This document shows, piece after piece, positions 26,711-27,541 of a stretch of DNA of 34,330 nucleotides. The DNA lies in assembly GCA_964439415.1 (NCBI GenBank), contig CAYTOJ010000001.1, positions 3,680 through 38,009 of the forward strand, given 5' to 3'. Source of the stretch: an uncultured Rickettsiales bacterium. GTDB taxonomy: Bacteria; Pseudomonadota; Alphaproteobacteria; Rickettsiales; CAZAGG01. The notes below the pieces were generated by a model. It searched no databases, was not told the DNA's origin, and saw only the letters and a list, made by a program, of their open reading frames with translations. Position 1 is the first letter of the stretch; every line of letters begins with the position of its first letter. Both the position numbers and the translations under genes were made by a program.

Positions 26711-27541
26711 ATGGAAATACGCTCAGTGCTCAGTGCTCAGTGCTCAGTGCTCAGTGCTCAGGATGAAGCCTGTTTAAAACCTGTCAAGCAGAAAAACAGC
26801 GGCTTTACGCTGGTTGAGTTATCCATAGTTCTGGTAATTATTGGCTTGCTGGTTGGTGGAATTCTCGCCGGGGCGGATTTGATACGGATAGCCAGGCTGA
26901 ATTCCATCCGTGAGGAGGTGGAAAAATTCAAAATGGCCACAAATGTTTTCTACGGCAAATATAACTGCCTGCCTGGTGATTGCTACAATATCACAACATA
27001 TCTCAGCGGCGTTACTAATGGCAACGGCAATGAATATATTGCCGCCTGGGATACCGGTGCAGGTGGAACTATAGGCGGGAGCGGCGCTGAAGAGAATTTC
27101 TACGCATGGCAACAACTTGCGGTGGCGGGGCTTATTCCCGGTGTCTACAGCGGCATTGATCCAACCGGGGCAGTTTGCAATACATCAACAAACAACGGCT
27201 GCCCGAAATCAAGAAGCGGGAAAAATGTTGCGTACTGGATGGTAAGCACAGGGTTTTATTCCACCCCTGTGGAAGTAACCATAGTTATGTCAAAAGATAC
27301 TGATGGCAACTGGAGCGCGCCAATTCCAGCGAAGGATGCAAGCTGGATTGACACAAAATACGATGATGGATTGCCGAACAAGGGGCATATCTTGAGTTTT
27401 GGATATGGCGGCTACCAGGGAGCCACCATTAATTATAGCGGTGGCGGGTGGACATCTAACTGTGTGACTGGCACAGCCCCAAGCCTCACTTATACCAGCA
27501 GTTCAGACCCGACATGCAAAATGGTGTTTATTCATAAGTAA
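26711..27541 (+). CDS. Prepilin-type N-terminal cleavage/methylation domain protein (type IV pilin / T2SS pseudopilin-like)
   Basis: AAGGA lies 6 nt upstream of the ATG. The class III signal G|FTLVELSIVLVIIGLLVGGILAG has Glu at +5. The C-terminal domain is G/T/S/Y/W-rich with paired Cys and belongs to no family I recognise. Confidence 0.8.
   Translation: MEIRSVLSAQCSVLSAQDEACLKPVKQKNSGFTLVELSIVLVIIGLLVGGILAGADLIRIARLNSIREEVEKFKMATNVFYGKYNCLPGDCYNITTYLSGVTNGNGNEYIAAWDTGAGGTIGGSGAEENFYAWQQLAVAGLIPGVYSGIDPTGAVCNTSTNNGCPKSRSGKNVAYWMVSTGFYSTPVEVTIVMSKDTDGNWSAPIPAKDASWIDTKYDDGLPNKGHILSFGYGGYQGATINYSGGGWTSNCVTGTAPSLTYTSSSDPTCKMVFIHK
26721..26761 (+). repeat. Heptanucleotide simple-sequence repeat (GCTCAGT) x 5.9 inside the pilin leader-coding region
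   Basis: Read directly from the sequence. Units start at 26721, 26728, 26735, 26742, 26749 and 26756 (the last is partial). Confidence 0.97.

Follow-up and report, generated by a model that had tools for sequence, protein, structure and literature searches.

A heptanucleotide repeat in the leader of a pilin-like gene as a probable slipped-strand ON/OFF switch in an uncultured alphaproteobacterium

Textbooks describe repeat-driven contingency loci from a small number of host-adapted pathogens, for instance Neisseria, Haemophilus, Campylobacter and Mycoplasma. The G tract of the neisserial pilC genes is located in the region coding for the signal peptide, and the pilin of Moraxella varies by means of an inversion system. 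The opa genes of Neisseria, 11 to 12 in number, contain coding CTCTT repeats in the leader-peptide region and vary at a rate of about 1e-3 per cell per generation (PMC3960869; PMC5953494). According to PMC5953494, which cites Jonsson et al. 1991, a homopolymeric G tract within the reading frame of pilC1 and pilC2 brings about phase variation by frameshifting. Heptamers serve as switches as well. The pglE gene with 5 to 34 copies of CAAACAC is an accepted phase-variable locus (PMC5953494), and 7-mers of H. influenzae comprise AACAACC (1 to 13 copies, in a gene for a TonB-dependent receptor), TGAAAGA and those of the hmw1A and hmw2A promoters (PMC2651432). Here, we describe a pilin-like gene (open reading frame (ORF) 26711..27541, plus strand, 276 residues) in which a perfect tract of the heptamer GCTCAGT separates the start codon from the prepilin cleavage site. 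The gene lies in a 34,330-nucleotide (nt) stretch of DNA from an uncultured bacterium, referred to as the window. We consider it probable that the tract acts as a slipped-strand ON/OFF switch, because comparable arrays recur in ON and OFF paralogs, are homogenised, are followed by preserved off-frame stop codons and are enriched at this position, all of which are hallmarks of contingency loci. The same interpretation had been proposed in a sequence-only reading of this DNA, and the comparison with related genes lends it support.

As in neisserial Opa (CTCTT/CTTCT pentamer), a non-triplet repeat is found inside the ORF, in the region of a cleaved leader, where slippage would set the frame. Both systems comprise several paralogs, and independent switching of these is a feature of Opa. 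In contrast to the pilin-like product with a class III signal described here, however, Opa is an eight-stranded beta-barrel outer-membrane protein with a Sec (class I) signal peptide and is unrelated in sequence. The Opa repeat is a 5-mer with one conserved unit, whereas the present 7-mer differs between paralogs, and the host is an uncultured alphaproteobacterium rather than a human pathogen, with switching predicted from sequence. Given its product and its 7-mer unit, the gene is not a member of the Opa family, and the likeness is one of mechanism only. The pilC genes share with the present locus a product belonging to the type IV pilus and a frameshift tract in the 5′ coding region, but PilC is a pilus-associated adhesin and retraction antagonist and not a pilin, and its tract is mononucleotide. 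The repeats of pglE and H. influenzae are comparable in unit length and copy number and reside within genes or promoters. Their targets are a glycosyltransferase, adhesin promoters and an iron receptor, however, and none of them is placed in a prepilin leader. Six units of a 7-mer fall within the span of copy numbers of these accepted loci. A perfect non-triplet repeat in the accepted copy range is situated inside an ORF, downstream of the putative start. Like the neisserial pilE/pilS system and the pilin inversion of Moraxella, the present system would vary the type IV pilin itself and includes several pilin gene copies. Those systems operate by gene conversion or site-specific inversion, whereas a repeat frameshift is proposed here, and we saw neither an invertase nor silent partial cassettes. 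No homology connects the present gene to Opa, pilC, pglE or the H. influenzae repeat loci. The mechanism is already known from Neisseria Opa, PilC and pglE; what is new is its assignment to this protein family and to this lineage. Full-text literature searches turned up neither a repeat described from a prepilin leader nor phase variation based on repeats in Alphaproteobacteria of this kind.

The tract occupies positions 26721-26761 of the plus strand (41 nt) and was scored by Tandem Repeats Finder (TRF) as (GCTCAGT)x5.9 with a period of 7, 100% matches and a score of 82, in agreement with the perfect repeat of about six units noticed previously. It is the sole perfect short-period array with at least five copies across the window, and the dimer of its unit, GCTCAGTGCTCAGT, is unique to it (chance expectation in the window 0.14 matches). 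The repeat sets in 10 nt past the A of the ATG at 26711-26713, which follows a Shine-Dalgarno (SD)-like AAGGA (26700-26704) after a 6-nt spacer. The claim that no other start is preceded by an SD sequence was upheld: within 45 nt upstream, the only other start codon is GTG 26683, which lacks an SD sequence and opens a frame of three codons. The SD sequence suggests that ATG 26711 is the functional start. All other features that had been read from the letters were recovered, too. The repeat is free of stop codons in every frame on this strand and encodes (SVLSAQC)n. The class III signal and prepilin cleavage motif G|FTLVELS (26801-26824) begins with the Gly(-1) codon at 26801, 39 nt past the end of the tract, so that the frame set by the repeat is kept. 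No in-frame ATG, GTG or TTG that might rescue translation occurs from the end of the tract to the cleavage site, and we found CTG and ATT to be absent as well. The 31-residue prepilin leader MEIRSVLSAQCSVLSAQDEACLKPVKQKNSG, which includes the repeat, is encoded by 26711-26803 and the mature pilin-like protein of 245 residues, together with the stop codon, by 26804-27541. The unit junctions give rise to a GTG every 7 nt, two of which (26726-26728 and 26747-26749) are in frame. Neither has an SD sequence, but they are possible weak rescue starts, and an in-frame GTG exists within the tract at any repeat number of at least three units.

The consequences of slippage were simulated by swapping the tract for versions with whole units added or removed and by translating them from the SD-preceded ATG. 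A prepilin was obtained at 2.9, 5.9, 8.9 and 11.9 units only, with products of 269, 276, 283 and 290 residues, respectively. The remaining unit counts resulted in peptides of 6-33 residues, terminated by the TGA at 26764-26766 directly after the repeat or by the TAA at 26775-26777, the two stop codons that the sequence-only reading had assigned to the alternative frames. With the present 41-nt tract, the ATG is in frame with the prepilin, i.e. ON. The predicted frame shift upon gain or loss of one or two units was reproduced, with off-frame termination at most 16 nt past the tract, and so was the alteration of the leader by 7 residues in three-unit steps.

In the living cell, replication slippage would change the number of units reversibly and at a raised rate. 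Ribosomes initiating at ATG 26711 would read through the 41-nt tract into the prepilin (ON). After a change by one or two units they would be off-frame and meet the TGA or the TAA, so that no pilin would be made from this ATG (OFF), whereas a change by three units would preserve the ON state and affect nothing but the presumably cleaved leader. Consequently, a clonal population would always be a mixture of cells piliated and non-piliated with respect to this pilin, and genomes with several such paralogs could express different pilin combinations, comparable to Opa in Neisseria. The likely benefit would be bet-hedging over a surface filament that is an adhesin and at the same time a target for phage, host or predator.

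Several lines of evidence identify the product as pilin-like. Residues 27-52 match the N_methyl family PF07963 with 28.9 bits (cutoff 21.2), TIGR02532 is matched with 24.7 bits (cutoff 16.3), and a profile built from the 94-homolog family matches PilE of Neisseria (E = 6e-5). Beyond PF07963, no Pfam family matched the 276-residue product. Across the 94 homologs, Gly31 and Glu36 are invariant and Phe32 is nearly so, and the same holds for an invariant Cys251 and a nearly invariant Cys269. The AlphaFold2 (AF2) model, with a mean predicted local distance difference test score (pLDDT) of 81.5 and a predicted template modelling score (pTM) of 0.78, consists of a 51-residue N-terminal helix (34-84) and a beta-sheet head with strands at 173-229. 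Its top neighbours in the PDB are type IV pilins, all of them weak matches (probability 0.93, E = 0.03, TM 0.31). As the fold search yielded weak pilin matches only, the modelled head domain appears to be without a close solved relative. The G|F-x-x-x-E motif together with the helix, the predicted 'lollipop' fold and the cysteine pair of a putative C-terminal disulfide are the features of a type IV pilin. The prepilin motif, the pilin fold and a secretin gene sharing an upstream motif (see below) predict that the product is surface-exposed or surface-modifying.

Evidence for switching comes in the first place from the closest subfamily, whose members share 36-49% identity with the window pilin (BLAST or alignment). 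At least 8 of its 11 members, the window gene included, have a 7-nt array at the equivalent site, four of them being ON (the window gene, P0001, P0003 and P0004) and four OFF (L001, L083, L084 and L085). The repeats of the three other ON members were read from the periodicity of the peptides and not from DNA. The P0001 leader has a 7-residue period (RSQKPEA-RSQKPEA-RSQ), that of P0003 consists of SVLSAQ followed by KPEARSQ-KPEARSQ, and P0004 contains RRQKAEG-RRQ. Six other close homologs are annotated from internal starts ('MELSIV...' or 'MIIGLL...'). DNA was read for four, and these OFF loci all stem from the ENA assembly ERZ3430527. L001 contains AAGTCAG x4.0 behind an ATG in frame -1, L083 AGTCAGA x7.1 behind a GTG that follows AGGGGGG (frame -2), L084 AGAAGCC x5.9 behind an ATG (frame -1), and L085 AACCAGA, scored as GAAACCA, x7.6 behind a GTG (frame -1). 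From these upstream starts, two of which are preceded by an SD-like sequence, 14-23 codons are read before the conserved off-frame stop is reached. All four OFF genes have a pilin frame that remains open over 240-244 codons, and they retain the subfamily's 63 invariant columns. Judging by their internal-start calls, P0007 and P0110 are presumably OFF as well. A fifth paralog in ERZ3430527, L082 (P0002), is repeat-free and has an in-frame ATG.

The alignment of the 5′ regions revealed that the units TGCTCAG, AAGTCAG, AAGCCAG and AAACCAG are related. All end in CAG and are one to three substitutions apart between genes, and arrays with the unit AAGGCAG occur in the subfamily, too. Every array that was read as DNA is perfect inside its own gene, and the unit differs from gene to gene. 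Because the arrays are perfect within genes yet different between genes, the alignment indicates that they are probably subject to ongoing slippage and homogenisation. The off-frame stops, too, are conserved at the nucleotide level. In all six paralogs, the codon before GA ends in T, though it encodes D, N, C, I, V or A, and the second off-frame stop arises from TTA or GTA followed by A or G (TAA or TAG), again in six of six; TTA makes up 12.5% of the Leu codons in the genes of the window. Naive probabilities for this conservation are 2e-4 for the first and 5e-7 for the second stop, values that are overstated since the paralogs are not independent of each other.

Arrays at the equivalent site are not confined to the closest subfamily. 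Two more distant subfamilies contain arrays of 4, 7 or 8 nt, with ON and OFF states both present. L015 (CCACTCA x3.9) and L067 (CACTCGC x4.9) are OFF, L029 (AGCG x11.8) and L087 (GCAATCAA x6 or more) are ON, and the state of L030 (GCAGGCAA x5.4) is ambiguous. The flanks ATGGCGCA...AGCAAAAAATCA are common to L029, L030 and L087. In L015 (5957-5966) and L067 (656-665), two ATGs 7 nt apart (ATGCAAAATG) and in different frames precede the repeat. Both are currently out of frame, the tract being in the third phase. Such twin starts would allow two of the three repeat phases to yield pilin and thereby bias the switch towards ON. A positional analysis of 852,617 nt of related DNA recovered 15 perfect repeats (minimum 3.5 units and 16 nt). 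The 150 nt in front of prepilin sites, which make up 2.3% of the sequence, harbour nine of them (binomial P = 7e-12). The periods of these nine are 4, 7 or 8 nt, never a multiple of three. The leader arrays comprise 3.9-11.8 units (above 5 in 6 of 10), whereas arrays in housekeeping genes do not exceed 4.4.

A number of observations weigh against a switch and have to be set against this evidence. Perfect in-frame 7-nt repeats of about four units are also located inside carB and atpG of related 'Rickettsiales' metagenome-assembled genomes (MAGs). Three arrays in carB (L077; 9957-9987, 10120-10150 and 10268-10297) lie between and beside the matches to the CPSase_L_D3 and D1 domains, and one array is found in atpG (L029; 2762-2788). 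Their units are GAGAGTC, ACTGACG, CTGACGA and TCGAGAG, with GAGAGTC occurring in two different MAGs. Mutable tracts inside essential genes like these are surprising in their own right. Thus, 7-nt repeats may be generated throughout the lineage regardless of any switching function, and the GCTCAGT tract might be a by-product that was tolerated in the cleaved leader as a permissive site and never selected as a switch. The range of leader lengths in the family, 3-84 residues as annotated, is in line with such permissiveness. We regard this explanation as unlikely in view of the very strong concentration of repeats at prepilin leaders and of the tendency of leader arrays to be longer than those in housekeeping genes. 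The preservation of off-frame stops right after the tract at synonymous positions and the intact conserved frames of 240-292 codons in OFF alleles likewise argue that the leader arrays are more than passive, and so does the persistence of arrays at the equivalent site in three diverged subfamilies despite turnover of the unit.

Further reservations concern the start codon and the provenance of the paralogs. The GTGs inside the tract could, despite their missing SD sequences, allow leaky expression in any phase, and the wider family mostly has short repeat-free leaders, 3-15 residues long in most members. Translation might instead start elsewhere, for example at a non-canonical codon or at one of the in-frame GTGs within the tract. 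Changes in unit number would then do no more than lengthen or shorten an N-terminal extension or the 5′ untranslated region. The availability of an in-frame GTG at three or more units and the sufficiency of short leaders speak for this scenario. It is nonetheless improbable in our view given the AAGGA-N6 in front of the ATG, the absence of any common start codon between tract and cleavage site, and the paralogous units AAGTCAG, AAGCCAG and AAACCAG, which are devoid of start codons despite the shared architecture. Structure of the 5′ region RNA was not significant either (fold z = -0.46). Because, in addition, no Rfam family matched in the window, a role of the repeat region at the RNA level is unlikely and was rejected. 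Another concern is that the OFF paralogs were recovered from one metagenome assembly of low coverage (about 3x). Several out-of-frame genes from low-coverage assemblies might be members of a decaying pseudogene family or assembly artefacts, with repeats and frameshifts devoid of a biological role. We give this idea very little credence, as the window gene is intact and the OFF paralogs bear no other lesion over their 240-292 codons and share the 63 invariant columns with the ON genes. Moreover, a like design is present in independent assemblies from different studies. Typical sequencing reads are longer than the tracts, which measure 27-53 nt. What also speaks against the switch is the relatedness of the paralogs mentioned above and the fact that a second copy of the exact locus was absent from the collections searched, so that tract-length polymorphism at this site was not observed. 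Paralogs with 4.0-7.6 units, found both ON and OFF, and the homogenised state of the individual arrays lend such polymorphism indirect support. On balance, we favour a slipped-strand switch.

The searches for such a copy covered proteins, metagenomes and genomes. Neither the pilin nor the adjacent UbiG had a record in an exact-protein look-up, and scans of JGI metagenomes with the conserved leader DNA and with the subfamily-invariant motif DCYNIxTYLSG gave no matches. Among the matches listed in a scan of genome contigs, relatives were at most 38% identical. The sequences nearest to the GyrA of the window are 78% and 73% identical, and those of named Alphaproteobacteria/Rickettsiales bacterium MAGs about 63-65%; the source organism is an uncultured alphaproteobacterium. 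In the nearest relative (78% identical GyrA), other genes are found upstream of gyrA and the region is not syntenic. The protein collection contained the window's own GyrA (P0121) and lacked the pilin ORF. Automatic annotation appears to miss or truncate repeat-bearing pilin genes.

The pilin family as a whole is large, with 15,048 cluster representatives at E <= 1e-3 and, among the matches listed, many copies per genome in MAGs labelled Alphaproteobacteria or Rickettsiales. The median leader length is 9 residues. Because none of 137 further family representatives has a periodic leader, the repeat device is probably a derived trait restricted to a few subfamilies. A bolder proposal, which we put forward tentatively and regard as possible rather than probable, is that some uncultured alphaproteobacterial lineages, whose MAG records carry the labels 'Rickettsiales' or 'Alphaproteobacteria bacterium', operate an Opa-like combinatorial system on type IV pilins. 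At least five paralogs per genome would each be gated by their own fast-evolving non-triplet leader repeat, backed by a conserved dual block of off-frame stops. In some genes, twin starts at a distance of 7 nt would serve two of the three frames, and the system may be tied to a lineage-wide generation of 7-nt repeats that extends even to housekeeping genes. If true, a repeat-based phase-variable gene set would exist in environmental bacteria, beyond host-restricted pathogens, and would probably be driven by phage, prey or host. According to PMC13170266, type IV pili often serve as receptors for phages, and exposure to phages favours cells that have lost the pilus. Confirmation of the switch at the present locus would point to fluctuating selection on a surface filament in these organisms and would explain why gene callers truncate or miss these genes. 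Furthermore, tract length in sequencing reads would become a simple marker of population heterogeneity in metagenomes, and the class III (prepilin) leader would be shown to tolerate long insertions of arbitrary sequence.

Candidate regulatory signals upstream of the gene link it to the only component of a pilus machinery in the window, a secretin (ORF 3985..5943, plus strand, PF00263). Its nearest model is MshL with 204 bits, below the cutoff of 250. The secretin probably forms the outer-membrane channel of the pilus system; genes for a peptidase, an ATPase or a platform protein are absent from the window. About 100 nt upstream of the pilin ATG, motif comparison uncovered a block on the plus strand (26566-26611) that reads ATTAACTG..AAATCCAYAC..CGCGAGCAGTATACT, or more fully ATTAACTG..AAATCCAYAC-N8-CGCGAGCAGTATA(C/A)(T/C). 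The block recurs about 135 nt upstream of the secretin ORF (3820-3851, with the 13-mer at 3837-3849). In another genome, it precedes a pilin paralog by about 75 nt (L083, 2955-3002). All three copies contain an unaltered 13-mer CGCGAGCAGTATA that leads into TATACT, TATAAT or TATACC. The block is unlike the sigma-70 -35 consensus, and a sigma-70 promoter scan gave no plus-strand match upstream of the pilin gene. The block is a candidate shared promoter or operator of a pilus regulon. A second inverted repeat (26552-26564 and 26597-26609) is built from the same 13-mer. The first one is a perfect palindrome with 17-bp arms (AATATACTCAAAACACT/AGTGTTTTGAGTATATT) at 26468-26506, in the divergent intergenic region between the pilin gene and a methyltransferase gene. 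A near-copy lies upstream of the secretin gene (delimited as 3730-3755 or 3730-3766; chance expectation nil), whereas none of the other loci retrieved contains the motif. The palindrome could be an operator or a small repeated element.

Downstream, the pilin stop codon and the ubiG start are 20 nt apart (27541-27562), with no terminator-like site between the two genes, and gyrA comes next. If pilin and ubiG are co-transcribed, premature termination in the OFF phase could be polar on ubiG. Directly past the secretin, two ORFs of 254 and 236 residues (5970-7448) have no Pfam or NCBIfam match and may encode lineage-specific pilus or secretion components. Elsewhere in the window, a tandem repeat of 33/66 nt (15865-16034; about 4.6 copies, about 75% identity) runs in-frame within the minus-strand ORF 15771..16265, whose product matches the CCDC90-like coiled-coil family PF07798. 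Finally, MltA and 3D lytic transglycosylase domains share a single ORF of 630 residues (11649-13541) with an N-terminal glycosyltransferase family 2 domain. Either this fusion is an unusual one, or two genes were joined when ORFs were called mechanically.

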